This document shows positions 6,801 to 22,391 of a stretch of 64,000 nt of DNA, piece by piece. The notes under the pieces are model-generated. The model worked only from the letters and a program-made list of their open reading frames with translations. It ran no database searches and was not told the DNA's origin. The DNA is from a bacterium. Lineage in GTDB: Bacteria > Patescibacteriota > Minisyncoccia > UBA6257 > GWB1-50-10. Numbering within the stretch: position 1 is the first letter of the stretch; each line of letters starts with the position of its first letter. The stretch is from the NCBI GenBank assembly GCA_030647415.1, contig JAUSKB010000011.1, forward strand, positions 21,858-85,857, in the 5' to 3' direction. A program made the translations under genes and the position numbers.

Positions 6801-8720
6801 GACGGGCTGGGTCATGGAGACGCCGGAAACCGTGGAGGTCGGATTGGTGTAGACAATGGTCTTGGTGGCGATAACGTTTGACAATGTTGAACTCGCGGTG
6901 CTTGATGCGCTATTGAAGTTGTTCGTGCCTGCCACGTCATCGGTAAAGCTCAAGACGAAGGCGCTTTGGTCAGTAGTTGAGGAGTAGATAAGGCCGGAGA
7001 AGGTGGAGACGCCGTTCGAGGCGGTAGAGGTCGTCGTGCCAGAGAGAGTACCAGCGCCGCTATAGACCGCGGCCGTAACCACGTCAGTGTTGACCGCCGC
7101 ATCCAGCGTGTTCTGCGCGTTAACGAATCGAATGACGGGCTGGGTCATGGAGACGCCGGAAACCGTGGAGGTCGGATTGGTGAAGACGATAACCTTGGTG
7201 GCGACAACGTCCGAGGTGAGGGCGTTTGCATTGACAGCCGCAAGGTCGCCTTCGGCGCCACCAGCAACATCATCCGCAGCAAGGGTAAACGCTTCCTGGT
7301 CAACCGAAGCGGTGTACGCAAGACCGGAGAAAGTGGCGACACCAGAAACCGCGCTTGTGGTCGCATTCGCCAGGGTGCCGGTAGACGCTTCCGTCAGAGT
7401 AATCACCTCAACGAAATCAGTGTCAGTCGCGCCAGCTGCGTTTCTGGCTGTTACCACTGGCTGGGTGACCAACGCGATGCCGGAGGTGGCGGAGGCCGGT
7501 TGCGTGGTAAAGGCAAGCACGGTGGCAACAACGTTTGACAATGTTGAACTCGCGTCCACCGGGGCGCCATTAAAGTTATTCGTGCCTGCCGCGTCATCGG
7601 TGAAACGCAGGACAAAGGCGCTTTGGTCGGTTGATGAGGAGTAAAGAAGACCAGAGAAGGTGGAGACGCCGTTCGAGGCGGTAGAGGTCGTCGCGCCGGA
7701 CAATGATCCACTGCCGCTCTGGACTGAAACGGTTACCACGTCAGTGTTGACCGCGGCATCCAGCGTGTTCTGGGCGTCAACGAATCGAATGACGGGCTGG
7801 GTCATAGAGATGCCGGAAACGGTGGAGGTCGGATTAGTGAAGACGATAACCTTGGTGGCGACAACGTTCGAGGTGACGGCGTTGGCGGTAGTTGTAGCAA
7901 GGTTCGTACCCACACCAGCATCATCATCAGCGGTCAAGGTGAATGCCTCTTGGTCAACCGAGGCGGTGTAAATCAAGCTAGCGCCAGTAGCAAAATTAGC
8001 AACACCGGCGACGGCGGCCTCTGTGGCATTCGCCAGCGTGCCGGTAGCGGTTTCAGTCAGAGTAATAAGTTCTGTGAAATTGGTGTCAGTGTTTCCATAT
8101 GTGTCACGCGCCGTTACGACTGGTTGAGTCACCAGTGCGATGCCGGAGGTGGCAGAGGCCGGTTGGGTGGTGAAAACAATTTGCGTAGCAGTCCCCGGCG
8201 TAAGCGTCACGCCCGCAATTCCGCTCTGGGCAGTTTCACCTGATGCGTTACTTGTAATTGTGAAAGTTCCTGTCGCTCCAGAAGTTGTCGCGTTCGTGAT
8301 ACCAGTCGTTATTCGAAAAGTCGTCCCTGTCCCCGTGCCGAGATCATAACCACTCGTTAAGGTCGCTTTAATGGTGCTACTCGCCGAACTACCGATAACA
8401 CTATCTATGCTACGGTCCACACCGTCCACGCTGATAAAGCCGGAGGTTACACACCCGCTATTACAAATGGCTGAAGCCCCAAGCGATCCATTTGTGATTG
8501 CGTAGCCAGCGGGAAACGTAACGGTAAGAGTCGTCGCGGTTGATGTTGTATTTGTATCAAACGAAACATTGTAATCAGCGTTCGCGGCGCCTACCACCAA
8601 ATCAGCCGCAGCAGTCCCAGCCACCGAACCACCGCTCACTGTCGCGTGAGCATTCGGAACCAAAACAAAACCACCGATTAAAACGAACGCGACTACTAAA
8701 AGAAAACTAGATTTTTTCAT
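3834..8720 (-). CDS. Giant (about 1628 aa) Ser/Thr/Ala-rich secreted surface protein, S-layer-like. It carries tandem Ig-like repeats, Fn3 and Big-like domains.
   Basis: The track ORF is 3834..8843. The internal ATG at 8720 gives MKKSSFLLVVAFVLIGGFVLVPNAHA, a signal peptide. Two repeat types of about 100 aa alternate (FTTQPASATSGIALVTQPVVTAR... and KVIVFTNPTSTVSGISMTQPVIRFV...). The C-terminal domains include an Fn3 (SSVSIAWTTSE...LYHFRVLSSDASGN) and a Big-like domain. Confidence 0.8.
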   Translation of the reverse strand: MKKSSFLLVVAFVLIGGFVLVPNAHATVSGGSVAGTAAADLVVGAANADYNVSFDTNTTSTATTLTVTFPAGYAITNGSLGASAICNSGCVTSGFISVDGVDRSIDSVIGSSASSTIKATLTSGYDLGTGTGTTFRITTGITNATTSGATGTFTITSNASGETAQSGIAGVTLTPGTATQIVFTTQPASATSGIALVTQPVVTARDTYGNTDTNFTELITLTETATGTLANATEAAVAGVANFATGASLIYTASVDQEAFTLTADDDAGVGTNLATTTANAVTSNVVATKVIVFTNPTSTVSGISMTQPVIRFVDAQNTLDAAVNTDVVTVSVQSGSGSLSGATTSTASNGVSTFSGLLYSSSTDQSAFVLRFTDDAAGTNNFNGAPVDASSTLSNVVATVLAFTTQPASATSGIALVTQPVVTARNAAGATDTDFVEVITLTEASTGTLANATTSAVSGVATFSGLAYTASVDQEAFTLAADDVAGGAEGDLAAVNANALTSDVVATKVIVFTNPTSTVSGVSMTQPVIRFVNAQNTLDAAVNTDVVTAAVYSGAGTLSGTTTSTASNGVSTFSGLIYSSTTDQSAFVLSFTDDVAGTNNFNSASSTASSTLSNVIATKTIVYTNPTSTVSGVSMTQPVIRFVNAADALDTFANADVVTAEVLSGGGTVSGNTTSSASNGVATFSGLIYSSTTDQSAFVLRFADDAAGTNNFNSASSTASSTLSNVIATVLAFTTQPASATSGIALVTQPVVTARNAAGATDTDFVEVITLTEASTGTLANATEAAVAGVANFATSDDLIYTASADQEAFTLTADDVAGGAEGNLATVNANAVTSDVVATKVIVYTNPTSSISGVSMTQPVIRFVDAQNTLDALANTDVVTAAVYSGAGTLSGTTTSTASNGVSTFSTILYTATADQQAFVLSFTDDAAGTNNFNSASSTASSTVSNVVATKFLVTLATSTPTAGSADTMTLTAANAGDITDTGYSATGKTYNFLDASSTALSTHTSPNGTAPTIPASSTVQAAFSSGVASLATFTLTRAEVLGAITVNDATLTGTSTSVTVRHAAASTYTVTPSTATPTAGTAFNLTVTAKDTSGNTASGVNGTVYTGVVFISASATAPYDLSPESYPFVSGDAGTKTFTSGVTLNTAQTVTITARDYADATITSSTSVTVSASADTTAPTISNIQASSITSSSVSIAWTTSETSASSTIQYGTTSSYGSSTVSTTSTTSHSRGLTGLIASTLYHFRVLSSDASGNTGTSGDQTFTTIGSDTTAPTVSSQYPTNASTSVVATIQPYIEFSEELKVSSVNSNTAQLRKSSDDSVVTATVSLGNGGKRVIIAPLSSLTATTSYYLYASTSVQDATGNALATAYGASSTSAFTTAATDTTAPTVSAQSPVDGATTTAITASPTVTFSEAMDANTVNTNTVQLRLYSGDSVVSASYSMNDARTIVTIDPIANLANSTQYYLWVTGAKDAAGNTVTAYTTKASQEFTTTAESVTLAVTGISASSTFATANDTYASGWSWVFSVTVPTGETSTTMKFADWISGSNTIAAASNIRFYSAQSSNATSSSPITITAANTYPSAMTLNADLDANTAGRQIQIVVEAKVPTGSAGGSYSTSYGIQSQ
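5850..8200. repeat. Near-identical intragenic tandem DNA repeats inside the giant surface-protein gene, with a period of about 1 kb built from alternating 660-bp and 340-bp sub-units.
   Basis: A 60-mer (aacgaatcgaatgacgggctgggtcatggagacgccggaaaccgtggaggtcggattggtg) recurs at about 6130, 6790, 7130 and 7790. The shadow ORFs 6370..6654 and 7087..7644 encode near-identical peptides. Confidence 0.6.
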
Positions 8721-9141
8721 ATTTATTACGAACTGAATTCTATCGCAGGTTCTTCCGCCAGAGGCACCGTGCCTACCGGCGGGCAGGGATCCACCTTCGC
8801 GCTTGCAAACGACCTTTTGTTTTTTTGCGCGGGAAGGTTTCAAGAACCTGCGTTTATTGTTTTAGATAGTTATGCCGAATATTTCTTGATGCCTGAATGA
8901 CCTTTTTATAAGATCTGAAATTAGGGTTAGTTATCAAATCAATATCGTACGTACATTGTAGCATACCCACTATTCTTCACCTGTGGATATGTGCAAAATA
9001 TGCACATACTGCGCGAGCCACGCGATTATCCGCTGGCGCTGCTGGAACGCTGCGTCTGAAATAATAGGTAGTAATGGCAGGTGAGAGTGGCGAGTTCGCG
9101 AAGGCGGGCCCGACTCGCATACAGGCGAGGCAGGGTGTAGG

Positions 9142-14169: not shown

Positions 14170-15410
14170 GCGGGTTGACGCTCGCCACGCCCCTCCGCGA
14201 GCACCCGCTCCCACGCCGCGATACCGACCTTCTTCGAAAAGTGCGTCGTGAGGTACCGGTAGCCGTTCGCGCCGAGCGCGGGGAGTGTCGCACGGGCGTC
14301 GTAGGCGGCGCGAAATGCCGCGACGACTGCCGTGCGGTCATCGGACACCGCCGCGAACCCGCACTCGGCCTCACGAACGATTCGGAGCGCGTCGCTCTCC
14401 GTATGCACCGCGACGACCACCGGAACGCCCGCCGCCATGTACCCCATGAGCTTCGCCGGGACCGCCGGCGTCGTGTTCTTCGACGTGAGCGTTGCGATGC
14501 CCACGCTCATCGCCTTCACGAGCTCCGGATACTCCGCGCTGGAGACGAATGGTTTGAATATGACGTTTTCCAGTTTTCGTTCGCGAGCTACACCCTCGAG
14601 CCGCGCGCGGTCCGTACCGTCGCCCACGAAGAGGAACTTCACTCTCGGCACGGCGCGGAACGATTCCGCTGCATCGAGCACCAGGTCGAGCCCCTGCGAG
14701 GGACCCAAGACGCCCGCAAAGAGGAAGACGAAATCGTTCGCCAAACCCCATGCCGTGCGGAACCGGTTGCCGACCGGCGCCGCATCAAAGGGTACGGTGT
14801 CGATCCAGTGCGGAATGACGCGGAGCTTCGCCGCTGGAACGCTACGCCGGTCCGTGAGGTAGCGGGCGTGCAACGCAGACGGAACCACGATTGTCTCGGC
14901 GCGCCGGTACACCGTCCGCTCCATCGGGCCGAAGAAGAGCTGGATGAGCGGCTTCTGCCATGTGGCGACGAGGTCAATGCCGTTCTGGGGAAAAATGTCG
15001 TGAATGTTCGGGATAAATCGGGCGCCATAGCGGTGGGCGAGGCGCGAGGCGGCGAGCGCGAGCGGCAGGGGCGGGCTGTGGACGATGACTGCATCAAACG
15101 GGCCGCGAATCGAGCGTCGAACCGCCCGGGCGAAAACGCCGGGCAGGAGGAGCTGCGAGATGCCCCGAACGAGATACGGCACCTTGTGGTGCGGGAGCGT
15201 CGCAATGCGGACCACGCGCACGCCGCGGCGCACCTCGTCGCGCGGCACCTCCTCGGCGACCGTCCCCGGCGCGAGGTTGTAGGCGGGGACGGTCGTCGCA
15301 ACCGTCACCTCGTGGCCGTTCTCCGCGAGCCCTTCCGCTAACTCCGCCATGAGCTGGGAGGCCGAGCGGAGCTCCGGCGGGTAGGAATCAGTGACGATGA
15401 GGAGTTTCAT
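14166..15410 (-). CDS. GT4 (group 1) glycosyltransferase.
   Basis: A C-terminal GT-B motif region (EGFGLPVLEAMAAG-like: KLMGYMAAGVPVV). ATG at 15410. Confidence 0.85.
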   Translation of the reverse strand: MKLLIVTDSYPPELRSASQLMAELAEGLAENGHEVTVATTVPAYNLAPGTVAEEVPRDEVRRGVRVVRIATLPHHKVPYLVRGISQLLLPGVFARAVRRSIRGPFDAVIVHSPPLPLALAASRLAHRYGARFIPNIHDIFPQNGIDLVATWQKPLIQLFFGPMERTVYRRAETIVVPSALHARYLTDRRSVPAAKLRVIPHWIDTVPFDAAPVGNRFRTAWGLANDFVFLFAGVLGPSQGLDLVLDAAESFRAVPRVKFLFVGDGTDRARLEGVARERKLENVIFKPFVSSAEYPELVKAMSVGIATLTSKNTTPAVPAKLMGYMAAGVPVVVAVHTESDALRIVREAECGFAAVSDDRTAVVAAFRAAYDARATLPALGANGYRYLTTHFSKKVGIAAWERVLAEGRGERQPA

Positions 15411-15450
15411 GGAAATTTATTAAGAAACCGATGTGTAATGGTTTCTGTGT

Positions 15451-15906
15451 CTAGATAATTTCAGTCAATTCAGATAGTGAGTGGATGATAAAGGTTGGTG
15501 TTTTCGTTTCTTCATTTGGTAGCTCATTCTCAAATTTTCCTTTCTGTAACCATACCGTGGGATGATTGCGTAGATTGCCATATTTTATCCCACGAATAAT
15601 GCGGTCGTCGACGATGAGAATTTCTTCCCGCGGTAGATCGAGCTTCGCAACAACCTCGTCCAAAATTTTATCCTTATCTTCATCCGTAACCGCGGCTACC
15701 TCGAAGAACTTTCGTAGCGGGGAGTTCTCAATCTGCTTTGTCCGTTCCTCCAAACTCGCGTTTGCATGAATGCTCACAAGTGAAGCAACGGCCAACCGAT
15801 ACCCACGCTTCCGGCACAGTACCAAAATCTCCTCAGCTTCGGGAAATTCATTCTTCGTTTCCGAATCAAAAAGAGTTCTCCCCCAATCAAAAATAATTGC
15901 TTTCAT
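15451..15906 (-). CDS. HAD-superfamily hydrolase, a probable sugar-phosphate or nucleotide phosphatase. Low-GC gene.
   Basis: MKAIIFDWGRTLFD (DxD/HAD motif I), ...LIVDDR. The track start is TTG at 15954. An internal ATG (M17) is preferred. GC content is about 40%, against 65% in the neighbours. Confidence 0.65.
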   Translation of the reverse strand: MKAIIFDWGRTLFDSETKNEFPEAEEILVLCRKRGYRLAVASLVSIHANASLEERTKQIENSPLRKFFEVAAVTDEDKDKILDEVVAKLDLPREEILIVDDRIIRGIKYGNLRNHPTVWLQKGKFENELPNEETKTPTFIIHSLSELTEII

Positions 15907-16043
15907 ATTCCCTCCCTTGCATTCTAGACCCCAACACGGGCGACGCAAGCTCAAGACTGAATACAGAAGGCGCTACGGGGATAGTTGGCAAGATGGTATC
16001 TACAAAACCTTGTTTTGCTACATAGAGGGATTAGACTTCCTAT

Positions 16044-16523
16044 ATGGAGGATATGTCCAATTACGAGAAGTTGAGAGGGGACGCACAAAAGTTCTACAGC
16101 GAAATCGGAAGTGTCTTCTCCCCTGCTTTTAGCCAAAAAGTACAGTTCAGCTCGGAGGGATTTAACCATATTATCTTCAAAAGCCCTCGAACTGAACGGG
16201 AGAGGTCATCCCAGATTTTGCGATTAAAATTACTACCCTTAGCAATCAAACTCGTGGCAGACTCGACCACACACCAGGAATTCGAGGAGTCTTTGAAGGA
16301 ATTTGATGTTATGAGATTTAAGAAAAGGGCCAGAAAAACAATGATGGTCAGGTATTGGGGCATCATCGCAATCGTAGAGGGAAGAAAAATCAAGGTGATT
16401 ATCAGGAAGGTGGGCGATAATGGTGCCATGCATTTCTGGAGCATCGTGCCAGCCTGGGCAACCAACAAATATCGCGACCAAAAGCTATTCACCACAATGA
16501 AGGGGAACCCGGAAGAAGATTGA
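16044..16523 (+). CDS. Hypothetical protein (159 aa) with no recognised family, in a low-GC insert.
   Basis: A clean ORF followed by a strong terminator. Its composition differs from the flanking sequence. Confidence 0.45.
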   Translation: MEDMSNYEKLRGDAQKFYSEIGSVFSPAFSQKVQFSSEGFNHIIFKSPRTERERSSQILRLKLLPLAIKLVADSTTHQEFEESLKEFDVMRFKKRARKTMMVRYWGIIAIVEGRKIKVIIRKVGDNGAMHFWSIVPAWATNKYRDQKLFTTMKGNPEED

Positions 16524-16532
16524 AAACAAAAA

Positions 16533-16558
16533 GACCGCTCGCACGCGGTCCTTTTGTT
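16533..16558 (+). terminator. Rho-independent terminator.
   Basis: GACCGC-tcgcac-GCGGTC followed by CTTTTGTTGT. Confidence 0.6.
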
Positions 16559-16736
16559 GTGCCTGCCTTCAGCTTTGGTATTAGCCGAATAGGGCTGGCG
16601 CCCCACAAGCACAATCTTAGTATATACCATAGGTAATGGGAAGTTGTCCACATATCCAATATGAGTGGTTTTAATTGGGTAATTCACCCTTCTTAATCAT
16701 TCCATGGAGGATCCCAGAGTGGGAGGATACAAGTCC

Positions 16737-16801
16737 GACATTCCAATGTTCCGCGGAACATTGGAATGTCATACTGTGCCTGTTACCGTGTCTGTTACCG
16801 T
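16737..16801. promoter_or_regulatory. A 34-bp perfect palindrome (GACATTCCAATGTTCCG|CGGAACATTGGAATGTC) followed by a tandem 11-mer CTGTTACCGTG x2. It sits upstream of and overlapping the start of the oxidoreductase fusion gene.
   Basis: Perfect reverse-complement symmetry was verified base by base. The direct repeat lies at 16779-89 and 16791-801. Confidence 0.5.
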
Positions 16802-16840
16802 GCCTTTTCTGAATGGAGCGAGCGACGTATACTATATTTC

Positions 16841-18607
16841 ATGCGCATCCTGACCGGCAAGAAGTGGCGCGGGGGGTTCCTCGACTACCACCGGAACAAG
16901 AAGGAGTACCGAATCCAGGTGCTCGCATGGAAAAATCTTGAAAAACTCGAGAACGTCTACCACACCCGGCCCAAGAGCCTCCGCCTCCTCTGGAACTACC
17001 TCCCCGTCGTGGGGTTCGAAGGGCTCCTCACGAAGACCTGGTCTCGGCTCCGCGAGGACCGGCGGAACGAAAAGTACGTTGCCTGCGGCGTCGGTACCGT
17101 CATCGAGGGCGCCGGCGACGCACGATTCCCCATAGGTTCCATTGTCTGCTTCGTCGCGCCCTGGCACCCCGCGCTCGCGGAGCGCGTCGTCCTCCCCGAG
17201 GAGCTCGTCTTCGCCATCGATACGGCCGCGACGCCGAAGGTCCCCGACGGGACCATCCTCCACGCGCCGCTCGCGCGCGGAAAGAACGAGCTTCCCTGGT
17301 GGAAGCCGGTGCGCGCGTGGAGCACGTACGCCGGCATCGCGCTCTCCACGGAAACGATCTCCGAGCTTGAGCGAGGGCTCCGCATCGAGCTCTCAGCGAC
17401 CGACTGGTCACGGGCGGACCGCATGAACGCGTCCCACCCCGCGCCTGTCGCTCTCGTCCATGGCGGCGTCCCCACGTCAGGGCACTCAAACCAGCAACTG
17501 ACCCGCCTCGCCCGACGAGCGGGCGAGTCGAGGCGGGCAACCGATGGTTCTACAAGCTCACCATCTCTTCGAGAGCCTGAGGGCTCCTCAGAGCCTCGAA
17601 CGGCCCGAGCAGAGTCGAGGGACAACCGACAACCGAAGATGGGGATTCTCTACGGGTTCGGCAACTACGCGAAAACCAACATCATCCCCTACTCGAGGCC
17701 CTTCGTGAACATACGGACGGTCCACGAGATCGACCCCACGCAGATCGCCGGCGCGCACCGCGTGGAGCGATGGGAATCGTCCCCGTTCCCGGCAGAGAAC
17801 GAGCGGGCCGAGGTCTACTTCGTGGCGAGCTACAACCACACCCACGTCCCCATCACCCTCCACGCCCTTGCGCAGGGGGCCTACGTCGTCGTCGAAAAGC
17901 CCGTCGTGATGGACCACGACGAGCTCGCGGAGGTCGAGGTTGCGCTCCGGAAGGCGGGGCGGAAGCTCTTCGTCGGATTCCATAAACGGTACGGGCTTTT
18001 CAACCGGCTGGCGCTCGAGGACCTCAAGGTAGAGCCGGGCGAGCCCATCTCCTACCACTCCATCGTGTACGAGCTCATCCAGCCCGAGTTCTTCTGGTAC
18101 AACTGGCCGGTTTCGCGGAGCACCTTCCTCTCGAACGGCTGCCACCAGGTGGACCACTTCCTCCACCTGAATGGCTTCTCGAAGCCGAAAGACGCAGGAA
18201 TCAAGCTGCTCCAAGACGACGCCGTCGAGGTATGGATCGAACTTGAAAACGGGGCGTCCTTCACCACCACGTTCAGCGAGAAGGGCGTTTCGCGCGTCGG
18301 CCCGCGGGACCACGTGGAGCTGAAGGTACACGGCCGGAACGTGCGCATCACGGACGCCATCCGGTACCAGTCCGAGGATAACCACCGCATCATCCGGCGG
18401 AGGCGCATCGTGAAGACAAACAGCTACAAGGACATGTACCGGACCATCTGCGCGAAGATCGCGGCAAACGAACCGGGCGACACCATTGAGTCTGTCCTCA
18501 TCACCTCAAAAATCATGCTCGACCTCGAGGAGAAGCTCCAACACATGAAACATTGGGGTACTAGATACGATATCGCAAAGAAAGAGTTTGAAAAGCGTTT
18601 CTTCTAA
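16841..18607 (+). CDS. Fusion protein. An unknown N-terminal domain of about 250 aa is joined by a low-complexity linker to a C-terminal Gfo/Idh/MocA-family NAD(P) oxidoreductase, a putative sugar dehydrogenase.
   Basis: The C-terminal half has a Rossmann fold and the VVVEKP motif typical of Gfo/Idh/MocA. The linker is RRAGESRRATDGSTSSPSLREPEGSSEPRTARAESRD. The ATG at 16841 (MRILTGKKW) is preferred over the track start at 16766. Confidence 0.6.
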   Translation: MRILTGKKWRGGFLDYHRNKKEYRIQVLAWKNLEKLENVYHTRPKSLRLLWNYLPVVGFEGLLTKTWSRLREDRRNEKYVACGVGTVIEGAGDARFPIGSIVCFVAPWHPALAERVVLPEELVFAIDTAATPKVPDGTILHAPLARGKNELPWWKPVRAWSTYAGIALSTETISELERGLRIELSATDWSRADRMNASHPAPVALVHGGVPTSGHSNQQLTRLARRAGESRRATDGSTSSPSLREPEGSSEPRTARAESRDNRQPKMGILYGFGNYAKTNIIPYSRPFVNIRTVHEIDPTQIAGAHRVERWESSPFPAENERAEVYFVASYNHTHVPITLHALAQGAYVVVEKPVVMDHDELAEVEVALRKAGRKLFVGFHKRYGLFNRLALEDLKVEPGEPISYHSIVYELIQPEFFWYNWPVSRSTFLSNGCHQVDHFLHLNGFSKPKDAGIKLLQDDAVEVWIELENGASFTTTFSEKGVSRVGPRDHVELKVHGRNVRITDAIRYQSEDNHRIIRRRRIVKTNSYKDMYRTICAKIAANEPGDTIESVLITSKIMLDLEEKLQHMKHWGTRYDIAKKEFEKRFF

Positions 18608-18857
18608 ACTGAAAGGGTGCCCGCCCGCCGCGCCCGACACGCTTCGCGAGTCATGCGGGCGGGCATCGCTACCTGCCCGAAGCTGCTGCATCGCTGCAGG
18701 CGGGCGCGAAGCGTTGCGGGCGGGGGGCGACAAGTATGAGCGGGCGAAAGCGGAGTTCGAGCGCCGCTTCCGGTAAAGAGACTGCGCGGAGCGCACGCAA
18801 TGGCGGAGGCGGAGTTCTTTTTGCCATTTTCGCTAACTTTATATAGTTTCCTAAATA

Positions 18858-18886
18858 TTGCATAACTTTATAAAGTTTGATACTAT
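18858..18886 (+). promoter_or_regulatory. Promoter TTGCAT-N17-TACTAT for the Fic gene, with a leaderless or short-leader start.
   Basis: The hexamers were read directly. The -10 element overlaps the ATG at 18885, and the next ATG is at 18900. Confidence 0.4.
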
Positions 18887-18899
18887 GGCGATATCACGC

Positions 18900-19847
18900 A
18901 TGAAGCAAGCCAAACCCATGACCACTCGTCAAAAACTGGAAATCATCCGAAAGATGCTGGGACTGACCCAGACCAAGCTAGCCCAAAGGTTTGGGGTGTC
19001 CTTCGCGGCCTTCAACAGCTGGTGGACCGGTAAATCGAACCCGCGGCCGAAGATGCAGGCCGCCATCAACGAGCTGTTCCTGGAGGTGACCGGGCAGAAG
19101 ATAATCCCCGCCGACCAGCTCACCGCCAAGAAGCAGGCGTTGTCGCGGAAATCGGGAGAGCATGAAAACGTCGTGGCCGAAATTCTGGACAATCCGGATG
19201 TCCGCGACCAGTTCATATTGAAACTCACCTACCACAGCAACCGCATCGAAGGCAGTACGCTCACCGAGCCGGACACAGCAGCGATCCTTTTTGACAATGT
19301 CGCCTTGCCGAACAAAAGCATCATCGAACAGCTTGAAGCAAAAAACCACCAGACTGCCCTGAACTATCTTTTCGACTCTGTGGCCACGAAGGGGAAAATC
19401 AACGGGGCGCTGGTTCTCAAACTCCACGGCATTCTCATGAACGGCATAAAGTCGGATGCCGGCGCGTACCGCAACCATGGCGTGCGAATCACCGGTGTCA
19501 ATCTGCCGACCGCAAATTATGCAAGCGTACCGAAGTTGATGGCCGAAGCGATGCGCAAGACTGCCAAAAAAACGAAAGATGTCGTCGCACTCGTCGCCGC
19601 GGTGCACGGCACGTTTGAGCAGATCCATCCATTCTCCGACGGCAACGGTCGCACGGGCCGCCTGCTTATGGACGCCATGTTGCTTCAGGCAAATTTCGCC
19701 CCGCCCATCATCCGCCAAGAGCAAAAACGGCTCTACTACATGTATCTCTACAAAGCCCAGACCAAGGAGGATTACAGCCGGCTGGAGGATTTCCTCTGCG
19801 ATGCAATCGTGGACGGATTCAAAATCCTCGAGCGAGCTGATTCGTAG
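18900..19847 (+). CDS. Fic/Doc-family protein (putative AMPylase) with an N-terminal XRE-type HTH.
   Basis: The Fic core is HPFSDGNGRTGR. A class-II inhibitory motif SxxxEG (SNRIEG) precedes the core. The HTH is LGLTQTKLAQRFGVSFAAFNSWWTG. The track start at 18858 is TTG, and the true start is probably the ATG at 18885 or 18900. Confidence 0.7.
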   Translation: MKQAKPMTTRQKLEIIRKMLGLTQTKLAQRFGVSFAAFNSWWTGKSNPRPKMQAAINELFLEVTGQKIIPADQLTAKKQALSRKSGEHENVVAEILDNPDVRDQFILKLTYHSNRIEGSTLTEPDTAAILFDNVALPNKSIIEQLEAKNHQTALNYLFDSVATKGKINGALVLKLHGILMNGIKSDAGAYRNHGVRITGVNLPTANYASVPKLMAEAMRKTAKKTKDVVALVAAVHGTFEQIHPFSDGNGRTGRLLMDAMLLQANFAPPIIRQEQKRLYYMYLYKAQTKEDYSRLEDFLCDAIVDGFKILERADS

Positions 19848-20011
19848 AAAAAGGTCTCGCGTGATCTCTGTCAGCGAACAACTTGAACTGTTCATGGCAC
19901 TGTTCTTGTGGTTGTTGGGATACCCCCTAACTTCCCCTAGCCCGCAACAGTAACTCCCCCTAGCCCCCTCTTATGAATAAGAGGGGATATGCATTTCCCT
20001 CCTCCCCTTAC

Positions 20012-20407
20012 CTATAAGGGGAGGTTGGGAGGGGTTAAGTCCGCGATTGCTTCGCGGACTTTTTCATACACACCCTCCAGATTCCGCAACACGTCATTGT
20101 TCCAAAATCGAATCACCATGATGTTTTGCTCCCGAAGGTATGCGGTCCGAACCGCGTCAGAATCGCTATCAATGTGCTGGCTCCCATCAACCTCTATCGC
20201 CAATCGAAACGCCGGACAGTAAAAATCCAGAATGTACGCACCGATGCCGTACTGCCTGAAAAACTTCACTCCGTTCATACGCTTGCCACGAAGCACACCC
20301 CACAGCTTCCGTTCCGCCTCAGTCTGCGACCTGCGCAACGACCTGCGCCGTTCCTTTAGGTCCTCACTGTTATAGAGGTGGGGCATAATTCCAGTAACCC
20401 CTCTCAT
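20012..20407 (-). CDS. DUF559 / Vsr-like endonuclease-domain protein.
   Basis: FYCPAFRLAIEVDGSQH...VIRFWNNDV matches the DUF559 signature. Family A palindromic repeats flank it on both sides. Confidence 0.7.
   Translation of the reverse strand: MRGVTGIMPHLYNSEDLKERRRSLRRSQTEAERKLWGVLRGKRMNGVKFFRQYGIGAYILDFYCPAFRLAIEVDGSQHIDSDSDAVRTAYLREQNIMVIRFWNNDVLRNLEGVYEKVREAIADLTPPNLPL
20039..20064 (+). terminator. Candidate terminator for the Fic transcript. It lies inside the 3' coding end of the convergent DUF559 gene.
   Basis: GTCCGCG-attgctt-CGCGGAC followed by TTTTT. Confidence 0.35.
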
Positions 20408-20456
20408 TCTCCCCTTATGCTAAAGGGGGTACCCTCCTAACTCCCCCAACCCCCTC

Positions 20457-21599
20457 TTATTCTAAGAGGGGGGCGCCCCGGCGAAGGCGGACGATCTCCC
20501 GGTCGATGAGGAGCGGGTACCAGAGACCGTGCAGTACGTGGTACCGCCACCCCGTCGGACCGTCGAGAAACCCGCCGCGCAGAATGAACACATACCCGAA
20601 GTAGAGGACAGCGCGGAGAAAGAGCGGCAGTCGGTCGTACGCACCCCGCCTCCCCGCCCGCAGTCTCTGTTCGGTGTCCGCACCAACGGCAGCTGTAACC
20701 CCCCCTAGCCCCCCCTTATCGGTAAGGGGGGGGAGCGGACCTAACCCCACCTTATGAGCAAGGGGGGGGATTGGACCTAACCCCACCGTATCTGTAAGGG
20801 GGAGGATCGGGCCTAGCCCAACCGTATGAGCAAGAGAAGTGAGCGGAATCGACCTCCCCTTATCATAAGGGGAGGCAGGAGGGGTTACCCCTCTCCTCTG
20901 CCAATATTCTTTTGCTTTTAAGACGGCATACCGCCGGTGCTTCGCTTTCCAATCCGCGAGGCCGCGACGGTCGTCGTGCACAAGGTCGTGCTCCAGCTTT
21001 CCCGTCGCGCCGTCCACCGCGAAATGCTCGTCCATGAGTTGCCCCTCGCACCGCGCCACCGACCGCCGCATGAGCCGCAGAATCCAGACGGGATAGTACC
21101 CGCCGTGGCGGATCCACCGCCCATCCCACATGAACCGGCGTTTGAGATAGTAGCCGTTTATAGGTGATGTAGGCGCGTGCTCATCTTGTAAATTAACCTC
21201 GATACCCCTCATAACCCCTCCCAACCTCCCCTTATGATAAGGGGAGGCAGGAGGAGTTACTTCCTCGGCGTTTGTCGTTGGTTGTTTATTGTTTATTATT
21301 TGCCCAACCTCCTCCTTCAGCTCCTCCGTCGGATACTCGTCAGCGTCCACGAAGAGCACCCACTCGTTTCGGACCGGAAGCTCCCGGAGCGCCCAGTTCC
21401 GCTGCTCCACGAACCCGGCGAACGTATGCTCCACAACCGTTGCACCCGCCTCTCGTGCAATCGCCGCCGTCCGATCAATGGAGCCCGAGTCGAGAACCAC
21501 GACCTCGTCCGCCCACCCCACGACGTGCTCAAGGCACCGGGCGATGTTCGCCTCCTCGTCCCTGGTGAGCACAACAACTGCGACCGGCGCCACTTTCAT
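20457..21599 (-). CDS. GT2 glycosyltransferase (WaaE/KdtX-like) carrying in-frame palindromic-repeat insertions.
   Basis: The N-terminal GT-A fold is VVVLTRDEEANIARCL...VLDSGSIDRT...FVDADE. The C-terminal region has W.RHGGYYP..LRLMRR and GGFLDGPTGW. The repeat-encoded inserts are PPASPYHKGRLGGV and a PLTD/VGLGP tandem of about 60 aa. Confidence 0.75.
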   Translation of the reverse strand: MKVAPVAVVVLTRDEEANIARCLEHVVGWADEVVVLDSGSIDRTAAIAREAGATVVEHTFAGFVEQRNWALRELPVRNEWVLFVDADEYPTEELKEEVGQIINNKQPTTNAEEVTPPASPYHKGRLGGVMRGIEVNLQDEHAPTSPINGYYLKRRFMWDGRWIRHGGYYPVWILRLMRRSVARCEGQLMDEHFAVDGATGKLEHDLVHDDRRGLADWKAKHRRYAVLKAKEYWQRRGVTPPASPYDKGRSIPLTSLAHTVGLGPILPLTDTVGLGPIPPLAHKVGLGPLPPLTDKGGLGGVTAAVGADTEQRLRAGRRGAYDRLPLFLRAVLYFGYVFILRGGFLDGPTGWRYHVLHGLWYPLLIDREIVRLRRGAPLLE

Positions 21600-21602
21600 G
21601 CC

Positions 21603-22391
21603 TTACCTCTTGGTTCGTTTCAACTCTCGGCGGTACACGCGATCCCGCTGCGCGATGGTGTCTGTGAGCCAACTCCTCATGTGGTGACAGTTTGAAACGA
21701 CACAGTGCCCCCCGATGCCGCCGGGCATGTGTTTCAGAACCGGACGTGCGACGTACGGCTTCCCGAGCTTCCGATACCCCACGTTGTAGTCCTTGTTCGG
21801 CACGGTGTACACCTCGTCGTAGTCGAGCTCCCACTGAGCGCACAGCCGCTTCGCCTCCTTCGCGAAGACGATGTTCCATCCGTAGTACGCGGTATCAAGA
21901 AGCTTCGCGAGCTCGGTCGTTTCCGGCTTCCGGAACGTCACGGTTTTGAACCCTACCCGAGCGAACACATCCGCCGCGCGTTTCGCCTTCGGTCCGGCGA
22001 AGTACTTCGGGAAGGCGAAGAGGCTTCGGGCGAAGTGCCGGGGATTCCCGACCACGACGTGCGGCGATGCGTTCGTGACCCCAGGGTGATGCCTCTTCGT
22101 GTGCATGCCGCGAATCGGGCTGTGTACCGCACGCCTCCCTATTTTCATAGTGGTTCCGACGGGCACCGTCGAGTGCACGATGACGAGCGATGGCCGATAC
22201 AGGGCAATGTAGCGCTTCGTCGCTCTCACAAAATTCTTTGCCATCGGATACGCGATATGCATTACATCGAAACGCCCCTTCAAACCCACTTCTGCGTCTC
22301 GTAGGGAAACAGGAAAGGCACGCGACAACACTATAGCGAGCGCCTGCCCCACCTCGCCTGCGCCGATAATCAAATGCCGTTCTTTGCTCAT
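21603..22391 (-). CDS. Short protein of the UDP-glucose/GDP-mannose dehydrogenase family. It has the N-terminal NAD domain and central domain but lacks the C-terminal UDP-binding domain. Possibly truncated or decayed.
   Basis: IGAGEVG Rossmann motif, HSTVPVGTT, ETTELAKLL...LCAQWELDYDEV...PGGIGGHC (compare PG.G.GG.C). The protein ends about 25 aa later. The start was chosen at MSKERH (22391). An alternative start is MARLQ at 22412. Confidence 0.5.
   Translation of the reverse strand: MSKERHLIIGAGEVGQALAIVLSRAFPVSLRDAEVGLKGRFDVMHIAYPMAKNFVRATKRYIALYRPSLVIVHSTVPVGTTMKIGRRAVHSPIRGMHTKRHHPGVTNASPHVVVGNPRHFARSLFAFPKYFAGPKAKRAADVFARVGFKTVTFRKPETTELAKLLDTAYYGWNIVFAKEAKRLCAQWELDYDEVYTVPNKDYNVGYRKLGKPYVARPVLKHMPGGIGGHCVVSNCHHMRSWLTDTIAQRDRVYRRELKRTKR

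Follow-up and report, generated by a model that had tools for sequence, protein, structure and literature searches.

REP and REPIN sequences are tied to the RAYT gene, a single-copy and mostly vertically inherited gene for a Y1 HUH transposase (IS200/IS605-like), which has on both sides short palindromes that are also met elsewhere, solo or in inverted pairs. Escherichia coli was known to carry BoxC/PIT/TM repeats as early as the 1990s; in vitro these repeats adopt triplex structures, and they are markers of unstable loci. In this study, we analysed a 64-kb stretch of a 122,445-bp metagenome-assembled contig of Patescibacteria (Candidate Phyla Radiation, CPR), hereafter called the window, in which a polysaccharide/glycan gene cluster harbors a gene of the DUF559 family (PF04480, YcjD-type) between palindromes and, convergent to it, a gene for a Fic protein. 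We found that DUF559 genes from many phyla commonly lie between GC-rich hairpins, and the sequences suggest that these hairpins belong to the BoxC/PIT/TM family.

Holder et al. (2015, PMC4666352) described 23 copies of the repeat in E. coli MG1655, named TMECO, with second loops of type A (TTA) and type B (CCG) and often arranged as inverted A+B pairs. The copies were reported to be always intergenic, transposase- or integrase-like genes were never found near the motifs, and the way of spread was left open. Earlier work cited by PMC4666352 saw no promoter or terminator activity of the E. coli elements. As to DUF559, the Caulobacter protein VsrA was reported to be Vsr-like, functionally linked to a cytosine methyltransferase and a cause of DNA damage in vivo. 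The literature searched on DUF559, PF04480, YcjD and Vsr in combination with palindromes does not describe the association, and no repeat association was reported for Vsr, VsrA, the Neisseria protein of PDB entry 3HRL or I-Bth0305I in the literature searched. What comes nearest to it is a reported enrichment of DUF559 genes in the set of predicted inversion targets (odds ratio 14).

Hairpins beside DUF559 genes and the BoxC/PIT/TM repeats

Eighty DUF559 loci were chosen from GTDB species genomes of many phyla without regard to repeats, and hairpins were counted when they were GC-rich, pyrimidine-first, perfect, at least 8 bp long and within 150 nt of the gene. At least one such hairpin was found at 71 of the 80 loci and at least two at 53. 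Hairpin density was 3.0 per kb within 150 nt of DUF559, 0.37 at 150–1000 nt and 0.11 beyond 1 kb. When 241 open reading frames (ORFs) of other genes in the same loci were taken as controls, a hairpin was present upstream of 67.5% of the DUF559 genes versus 0.8% of the controls, and downstream of 70% versus 3.3%. The upstream hairpin ended at a median of 24 nt before codon 1 and the downstream hairpin began at a median of 0 nt after the stop codon. The pyrimidine arm came first in 152 of 153, a property that reads alike on both strands of a palindrome and describes a hairpin class, not a strand polarity. Loci collected around Fic homologues (61 kb in total) contained no such palindromes; neither did 27 loci of the neighbouring GFO-type oxidoreductase gene (GFO_IDH_MocA, GFO below) that lack DUF559, against 1–15 palindromes in loci with DUF559.

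The hairpin–DUF559–hairpin anatomy was also found in the comparison loci L006–L008, L089 and L123, and in Doudnabacteria, Saccharibacteria, Giovannonibacteria, Deltaproteobacteria/Geobacter/Desulfuromonadaceae, Thermodesulfobacteriota, Clostridia and Nitrospirota, with the protein 45–56% identical. The start of DUF559 is often GTTATG overlapping the arm, the stop is often the TAA of TAACCCC, and a TPPNLPL-like tail was present in 17 of 33 aligned homologues. A survey of 72 distinct units showed a 10-bp stem with a 3-nt loop, in which positions 8–10, beyond the requirement of the detector, were paired in 83–100%. Two variants, A and B, are distinguished by fully compensated exchanges between C:G and T:A at stem positions 5 and 8, B lying mostly upstream and A mostly downstream. 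In Proteobacteria the DUF559 flanks read CCCTCACCCCAA-CCCCTCTCCC-nnn-GGGAGAGGGG-TTAGGGGTGAGGG, with the geometry seen in the window, and many further repeat copies are dispersed near DUF559 in L058 and L016. The repeats surpass the protein in conservation, gene and repeats pass on as one unit, and the repeats multiply beside the gene.

The Proteobacteria flanks also match the TMECO sequences in Table 1 of PMC4666352, and those of L058 and L074 (CCCCTCTCCC-nnn-GGGAGAGGGG-TTAGGGGTGAGGG) correspond to types A (TTA) and B (CCG). The two groups are alike in their pyrimidine arm, short loop, purine arm, short loop and G-rich mirror arm, in the inverted A+B pairs and in being widespread across phyla. 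The window units read CCTCCCCTTA / TAAGGGGAGG / GGAGGGGTTA where TMECO has CCCTCTCCC / GGGAGAGGG / GGGTGAGGG. One full unit of the window (21212–21259) is TAACCCCTCC-CAA-CCTCCCCTTA-TGA-TAAGGGGAGG-CA-GGAGGAGTTA, which, as read from the sequence, follows the three-block scheme, with a Y-arm, an R-arm and, as mirror of the latter, a G-rich arm in which T stands opposite A; the mirror arm has its closest copy in GGGAGGGGTTA at 20027–20037. The window repeats lie within 1.3 kb of one gene and partly in frame in a coding gene, whereas TMECO copies are dispersed and intergenic; the description of the family as always intergenic and dispersed does not hold in the window, and dispersal was seen in L016, L058 and E. 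coli. We suggest that the DUF559 flanks belong to the BoxC/PIT/TM family of intrastrand-triplex repeats, with a triplex that is predicted only.

E. coli K-12 possesses one DUF559 gene, ycjD (1,351,407–1,351,760, minus strand). Downstream of ycjD, at a distance of 168 nt and beyond a partly duplicated copy of the 3′ end of the gene, comes TMECO #9 (1,351,204–1,351,239); by our own rough estimate the chance of such proximity is about 0.004 for 23 copies in 4.64 Mb. Every one of the 5,426 complete E. coli genomes contains the 50-nt TM unit, with a median of 19 places and a range of 2–35 per genome. The TMECO pair 1+2 (L132; MG1655 164,547–164,631, in the hrpB–mrcB spacer) reads hairpin-CCG-GGGTGAGGGC-16 nt-ACCCTCACCC-TAA-hairpin; its geometry, from hairpin and G-arm over 16 nt to C-arm and hairpin, is exactly that of the DUF559 unit minus the gene, and it may derive from such a unit. 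L008 shows a comparable junction without a gene, GGGGAGTTATGATGTAGTAACTCC.

The arrangement resembles REP–RAYT in that DUF559 is a single, mostly vertically inherited gene with inverted repeats on both flanks, and in that inverted pairs and solo copies occur elsewhere. It differs in its triplex-type homopurine/homopyrimidine palindromes and their weak dispersal in CPR genomes, and in the enzyme. Because DUF559 has the fold of Vsr, a PD-(D/E)xK hydrolase, and not the Y1 HUH fold, the comparison is one of analogy and not of membership.

The DUF559 unit and its repeats in the window

The DUF559 ORF of the window extends over 20012..20407 on the minus strand, and the database protein starts at its second ATG (20386). 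Among solved structures it matched 3HRL from Neisseria (2.7e-30) and 3R3P, which is I-Bth0305I (2e-3). Residues D54, E65, D67 and H71 were invariant across the 33 homologues, and the protein is a predicted member of the Vsr-like PD-(D/E)xK nuclease family. It shares the fold family and the conserved acidic/His residues with Vsr, VsrA, the Neisseria 3HRL protein and the homing endonuclease I-Bth0305I (EDxHD); unlike in those systems, no cytosine methyltransferase was seen beside the gene in the window, and the gene does not lie in an intron or intein.

The closest relatives were found at the same junction, with DUF559 following a family 2 glycosyltransferase (GT2) gene and facing GFO, in L006 (81% identity), L007 (76%), L008 (73%) and L123 (70%). 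By tblastn, DUF559 was also located at the GT2/GFO junction in L089, L090 and L098, L008 belonging to the contig of L090. When metagenomes were scanned with the C-terminal half of GFO, 34 loci were obtained, 27 of which are without DUF559 and have different gene orders. At the junction loci the identity of DUF559 (61–81%) tracks that of GFO (64–77%), which suggests that DUF559 was inherited vertically with GFO. One DUF559 copy was present per locus (10-kb flanks covered). The preliminary description saw the gene as bracketed by palindromes and as looking like a cassette. The brackets were confirmed, with C-rich/G-rich stems on both flanks; the gene itself is kept at the GT2/GFO junction in five related loci, and such conservation had been named beforehand as the sign of a dedicated role that would refute the first reading. 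DUF559 is a resident gene and no recent cassette.

Inside the 3′ coding end of DUF559, a perfect hairpin of 8–10 bp on the plus strand, AAGTCCGCGA-ttgc-TCGCGGACTT, is followed by TTTTT (~20040–20066). It is partly kept in L006 and was not listed by the terminator scan, and it could terminate the convergent Fic transcript.

The palindrome family of the window is confined to 19.92–21.26 kb. The stems flanking DUF559 are 10 bp long and C-rich/G-rich (Table 1), and the DNA folds of the flanking units gave z-scores of −3.1 to −4.8 against shuffles. On the sense strand of DUF559, hairpin B (CCCCCTCTTA-nnn-TAAGAGGGGG) and a G-rich arm (TTGGGGGAGTTA) precede the ATG, and a C-rich arm (TAACCCCTCCCAACC) and hairpin A (CTCCCCTTA-nnn-TAAGGGGAG) follow the stop codon. 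The unit has terminal inverted repeats of ~35 bp at each end, each composed of hairpin plus arm. The outer arm GGTTGGGAGGGGTTA encodes the DUF559 tail TPPNLPL and its stop, the final seven codons being the translated C-rich arm, and the stop codon of GT2 lies inside the loop of the hairpin B at the 5′ end.

Other classes of element were considered for these palindromes. The attC sites of integrons have the consensus RYYYAAC...GTTRRRY and are superficially alike in geometry; an integron gene cassette was rejected, as no integrase or array was present in the flanks and the arm orientation differs. Of the features of an insertion sequence or miniature inverted-repeat transposable element, the terminal inverted repeats are present; no target-site duplication was definable and Pfam gave no transposase domain. 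An Rfam scan of 18500–21700 (E ≤ 1) gave two chance-level hits only, and no RNA family covers the palindromes.

Further copies are found in frame inside the GT2 gene, about six units altogether, with stems at 20709–32, 20853–75 and 21225–47. The fold of the array was no better than shuffles (z = −0.8), so that its units are decaying. The single 48-nt unit reads VTPPASPY[HD]KGRLGGV in translation, and the number of units at this linker site was found to vary: none in L006, one in the window, two in L007 and three in L089. Rickettsia palindromic elements are in-frame selfish repeats in coding genes (Ogata et al. 2000). The window copies are alike in being palindromic, of a length that is a multiple of three, open in frame and tolerated in a protein linker; they differ in belonging to an unrelated repeat family and in adjoining their presumed source gene.

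A minimal unit of 433 bp was found in the AT-rich genome of L124, flanked by two housekeeping genes, one for an ECF transporter and one for TM1506, with a DUF559 protein 68% identical to that of the window. A relative, L127, is without DUF559 in the ECF/TM1506 spacer, and L129 and L130 carry a degenerate DUF559 whose hairpins are of another variant. In L127 the spacer (1270–1360) is occupied by palindromes of another repeat family (TGTCATCCCCGCGAAAGCGGGGATGACA and CCCGCCTGCGCGGGAATGACA), and it is therefore a general sink for small repeats.

Table 1. Positions of the Fic and DUF559 features in the window
Feature	Positions	Strand	Details
Fic operator box 1, AACTTTATATAGTT	18835..18848	+	near-palindrome, 14 bp; kept upstream of homologues
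Putative Fic promoter, TTGCAT-17 nt-TACTAT	18858..18886	+	box 2 in spacer; read from homologue alignment, inferred only
Fic operator box 2, AACTTTATAAAGTT	18864..18877	+	perfect palindrome, 14 bp; 29 bp after box 1
Class II HTH-Fic gene	18918..19847	+	309 aa from conserved start; Pfam Fic 2.4e-20; closest solved structure FICD 3e-20
Putative XRE-like helix-turn-helix, N-terminal	18939..19055	+	Pfam HTH_3 E 1.5e-4
Inhibitory motif SNRIEG, (S/T)xxxE(G/N)	19236..19253	+	residues 107-112, N-terminal to Fic core
Fic active-site motif HPFSDGNGRTGR	19626..19661	+	residues 237-248; fits HxFx(D/E)GNGRxxR
Triplex-type palindromic units, DUF559 3′ end	19928..20037		DNA fold z = -4.4
3′ units, extra arm	19928-43		
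3′ units, outer arm TAACTCCCCCTAGC	19951-64		
3′ units, hairpin B	19965-86		
3′ units, hairpin A	20001-24		
3′ units, outer arm GGTTGGGAGGGGTTA	20023-37		
DUF559 nuclease gene (Vsr-fold, PD-(D/E)xK-type, predicted)	20012..20386	-	124 aa; Pfam DUF559 2e-33
Palindromic units, DUF559 5′ end	20395..20472		DNA fold z = -3.1
5′ units, arm of A-like hairpin	20395-20408		
5′ units, A-like hairpin	20409-28		imperfect
5′ units, arm of hairpin B	20438-49		
5′ units, hairpin B	20450-72		
GT2 glycosyltransferase gene with in-frame palindrome copies	20457..21599	-	Pfam Glycos_transf_2 2.2e-14; orthologue alignment
In-frame array in GT2	20689..20890		~5 degenerate units of 36-48 nt; site empty in all four orthologues
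Single in-frame 48-nt unit in GT2, VTPPASPYHKGRLGGV	21212..21259		16 aa; fold z = -4.8

The Fic gene and the glycan cluster

The glycan cluster of the window comprises, by Pfam, a Bac_transf sugar transferase, two Polysacc_synt flippases, a UDP-GlcNAc 2-epimerase, several GT4/GT2 enzymes, an FkbM methyltransferase, the GFO_IDH_MocA oxidoreductase and a UDP-glucose-dehydrogenase-like protein. The Fic gene on the plus strand, ending at 19847, and the convergent DUF559 gene on the minus strand are there as the preliminary description had them, and they lie between the GFO gene and a GT2 gene. That description had found both genes unexpected in a biosynthetic operon, and neither is indeed a glycan-synthesis gene.

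The Fic ORF can be read from 18858 to 19847. The start kept among homologues is the ATG at 18918 (MTTRQKLEII), and translation from the other in-frame codons, 18900, 18885 or 18858, is less probable; the TTG at 18858, an unlikely start, and the ATG at 18885 fall in the apparent promoter. The active-site motif and the upstream SNRIEG that had been recognised earlier are present, and the XRE-like helix-turn-helix (HTH) also named there is a probable one, the HTH_3 score being just below threshold; PF01381 is on record for several close homologues, and the NCBIfam RstR and MqsA HTH matches to the N-terminus are weak. The best PDB match was human FICD, in which YHTVAIEG of the inhibitory-glutamate helix aligned with YHSNRIEG, and FICD and the Fic protein of C. 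difficile (CdFic) are the closest solved relatives. Class II Fic proteins have been defined as those whose own chain carries, on the N-terminal side of the core, an inhibitory helix with (S/T)xxxE(G/N). Classified by profile and by SNRIEG in its own chain, the window protein is accordingly assigned to class II, as a predicted self-inhibited single chain, and its intact core motif points to competence for AMPylation.

A separate antitoxin partner, for which a search had been proposed, was not found, as no adjacent ORF is kept across six contexts. A class I Fic toxin–antitoxin pair was rejected because of the missing partner gene, and the inhibitory motif lies within the Fic chain. The Fic core matched the PADLOC profiles for the candidate single-gene defence systems PDC-S04 (3.6e-44) and SoFic (2.8e-29), and some homologues lie among toxin–antitoxin and Abi genes; these matches cover the core only, and other homologues lie among ribosomal and housekeeping genes. 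The SoFic NCBIfam equivalog was rejected, with 36.8 bits against a cut-off of 550. CccR of Yersinia pseudotuberculosis has been reported to repress its own promoter. It is like CbFic2, SoFic and the window protein in being a class II Fic with (S/T)xxxEG N-terminal to the core and an HTH, a probable one in the window protein, in one chain; the HTH of CccR, CbFic2 and SoFic is C-terminal and winged, whereas the probable HTH of the window protein is N-terminal and of XRE type, and its core is nearest to FICD and CdFic. By its motifs and relatives, the Fic part would be an ordinary, solitary, self-regulated and autoinhibited AMPylase module of a known kind.

Two small frames were noted at the Fic gene. 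An antisense ORF of 305 aa (18978–19895, minus strand) spans the whole gene; it is unsupported and probably an artefact of codon composition. A short ORF after Fic (19861–19953, plus strand), with (V/M)IS(V/M)SEQ..ELFM(A/S)L, is also present in L001, whose Fic is 90% identical, and not in L003–L005. This ORF could be a small gene, or what is left of an earlier neighbour.

When the window was scanned for AACTTTATAAAGTT with up to two mismatches, two matches were found against 0.09 expected, both upstream of Fic. The box pair is kept before the Fic homologues of L001, L003, L004, L005 and L006 (53–90% protein identity to the window Fic), so that boxes and gene were seen together in six different contexts, the window included. 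In L003, the first box starts at the stop codon of the preceding clpP-like frame, and the conserved block therefore begins there; this frame (7350–7945) itself has an in-frame stop between YSRLL and ERIVF and is a pseudogene or an assembly error. The homologue alignment shows promoter-like hexamers, TTGCAT/TTGTAT and TAATAT/TAGCAT/TAACAT, and suggests an autorepressed promoter TTGCAT-17-TAnnAT with box 2 in its spacer. Most likely, the putative XRE-type HTH binds both boxes at its own promoter and represses it.

Fic homologues with 75–91% identity, nearly all of 308–310 aa, were found in more than 120 Patescibacteria clusters, including Kaiser-, Jorgensen- and other Parcubacteria. Their contexts in five other Patescibacteria loci are all unrelated and share no recurring partner gene: AbiEii and type IV secretion coupling genes in L001, clpP and RNase Y in L003, HigB/ParE-like genes in L005. 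In L004 the gene (8001–8933, ~81% identity) lies between fusA (EF-G) and tuf (EF-Tu) of the str/ribosomal-protein operon. EF-Tu is named as a target of SoFic in a 2026 preprint (10.64898/2026.07.09.737422), and the position beside tuf may be a coincidence.

No Fic gene was found between GFO and DUF559 in the five syntenic loci. In syntenic L006 the only Fic is 53% identical; it is preceded by the same boxes and stands in the spacer on the other side of GFO, whereas the Fic of L001, in an unrelated context, is 90% identical. Conservation in syntenic clusters, which the preliminary description had set as the sign of a dedicated role, was thus absent for Fic, and the gene stands elsewhere in unrelated contexts. 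Because it is lacking from this junction in syntenic clusters, the Fic module, promoter/operator and gene together (~18.83–19.9 kb), was inserted here, and it has no link to glycan synthesis. The window corresponds to an L089-type arrangement with two insertions, the Fic module and a low-GC island at 15.35–16.85 kb.

This island (15350–16850), between a GT4 gene and GFO, has 43–47% GC versus 60–70% in the flanks and is not present in syntenic loci, L006 having its Fic paralogue at that position. It contains a HAD-type hydrolase gene (15451–15954, minus strand) and a 159-aa ORF (16044–16523, plus strand) with a weak LPD3 match only. The proposal of an insertion hotspot was borne out, as the spacers on both sides of GFO hold insertions, Fic on one side and the low-GC island on the other, with the 53%-identical Fic paralogue of L006 in the latter spacer. 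A GC-rich second copy of the GFO C-terminus (DKYERAKAEFERRFR, then stop) was noted at 18733–18776, ~125 nt beyond the functional, AT-richer end (RYDIAKKEFEKRFF, then stop; GFO 3′ end ~18480–18607), with GC-rich inverted repeats at 18620–18725 between the two copies. The second copy, DKYERAKAEFERRFR with its stop, is closer to the real C-terminus of L006 than the functional end is, which suggests that the 3′ end of GFO was replaced by a recombination patch.

Origin of the association and its meaning

We consider it rather probable that the window carries two independent, self-contained modules, an autoinhibited Fic with its own operators and a DUF559 gene as the core of a repeat-flanked unit that nicks and copies its repeats. 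The 1.5-kb stretch was earlier treated as one segment; it proved to consist of two units with different histories. The Fic HTH would repress its own promoter at both boxes, and Glu111 would keep the core inactive until a trigger arrives, as the motifs and the relatives CccR and FICD suggest; the module, like a toxin–antitoxin pair in a single chain, could serve as an addiction-type or defence-type system. The DUF559 unit of ~0.45 kb would run from hairpin B and the G-rich arm through the gene to the C-rich arm and hairpin A. Its Vsr-fold nuclease would recognise the structured (triplex or hairpin) repeats and nick them; copying of the repeats, and now and then of the whole unit, would follow through repair, replication slippage or gene conversion. 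This would give rise to local arrays, to the in-frame copies in GT2, to inverted pairs that lack the gene and to solo copies. We propose this because the Vsr residues are conserved, the 3HRL protein is a relative, gene and repeats are inherited as a unit, and the repeats are conserved and multiply locally. Anatomy, association, synteny and copy-number polymorphism were seen directly, and it is from these that we infer binding, cleavage and copying of the repeats by DUF559. As a tentative extension, which may well not hold, DUF559 (YcjD-type) nucleases could be dedicated partners of BoxC/PIT/TM repeats and form a second, mechanistically different symbiosis of the REP–RAYT kind, with TM(B)-DUF559-TM(A) as the unit and inverted TM pairs as gene-less derivatives.

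Several observations weigh against these proposals. When arm polarity was tested strictly, it was as expected in no more than 28 of 55 hairpins upstream and 13 of 39 downstream. A Vsr-fold hydrolase alone cannot do strand transfer. Only one of the 23 TM copies of E. coli is near ycjD, and its geometry is rearranged. The repeats of the window are not dispersed, and DUF559 has been stable at one junction over a GFO divergence of 64–77%, with a single copy per locus, so any movement must be rare. No clean empty site or target-site duplication was found through the ECF/TM1506 context, where the L127 spacer holds other palindromes. On the Fic side, the HTH_3 match reached 22.2 bits against a cut-off of 23 (E 1.5e-4), the consensus promoter scan called no promoter before Fic, the putative −35 hexamer matching at 3/6 positions only, and the homologues of Patescibacteria may be so alike because of strong constraint and not of transfer.

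Alternatively, the repeats may be autonomous, structure-prone DNA that host replication or repair or another enzyme spreads, DUF559 being a passenger or homing gene that lodges between two of them by target preference and renders no service. DUF559 is always found at the junction of a G-arm and a C-arm, the same junction occurs without the gene in L008 and E. coli, the protein is distantly related to the homing endonuclease I-Bth0305I, and the enrichment among inversion targets fits a gene flanked by inverted repeats. We nevertheless regard this as unlikely, since in CPR the repeats occur only where DUF559 is present and in none of the 27 related loci without it, the hairpin variant follows the DUF559 subgroup across phylum borders, and the repeats thin out with distance from the gene. 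DUF559 might also be a housekeeping nuclease of Vsr-like mismatch repair whose hairpins are its own cis elements, sequestering the ribosome-binding site at the 5′ end and acting as terminator or mRNA stabiliser at the 3′ end. The G-rich arms resemble Shine-Dalgarno sequences, the start often lies partly within the upstream arm (GGGGAGTTATG), the downstream hairpin directly adjoins the stop codon, VsrA offers a Vsr-like precedent with its functional link to a cytosine methyltransferase, and vertical inheritance at one site would fit as well. Cis elements of one gene do not account for the gene-less copies, namely the tandem arrays, the variable in-frame GT2 copies, the dispersed copies of L016 and L058 and the 23 of E. 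coli; arm and stem sequences are kept across phyla at only ~50% protein identity, beyond the needs of a terminator, and the E. coli elements lacked promoter and terminator activity in the earlier work cited in PMC4666352. We hold this explanation to be quite improbable.

It had also been suggested that Fic or DUF559 regulates or modifies the glycan cluster. DUF559 is kept at the GT2/GFO junction in five related loci, and L006 also has a Fic next to GFO. A dedicated role in the cluster is largely refuted by the context data all the same, and we give it very little credence: 27 of the 34 metagenome GFO clusters have neither gene, Fic homologues of 80–90% identity stand in unrelated contexts, a 68%-identical DUF559 lies between transporter and SecA-region genes, and the DUF559 relatives of other phyla have unrelated neighbours. 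Nothing suggests regulation or modification of the cluster by either gene; the DUF559–hairpin unit also lies between the ECF transporter and TM1506 genes and beside unrelated genes in other phyla.

The Fic gene of the window adds a clear instance of a one-chain module with its own operators, a type common in Patescibacteria. For the BoxC/PIT/TM repeats, which are themselves well known, the link to DUF559 is apparently undescribed, and one small nuclease family, associated at 71 of 80 loci with E. coli ycjD included, now stands as a concrete candidate partner for these orphan repeats. As E. coli has a single DUF559 gene, the idea is directly testable there. If it is true, the very large DUF559 family, whose proteins are of unknown function, would gain a role, and the TPPNLPL-type tails and the spurious low-complexity peptides found in annotations would be explained.

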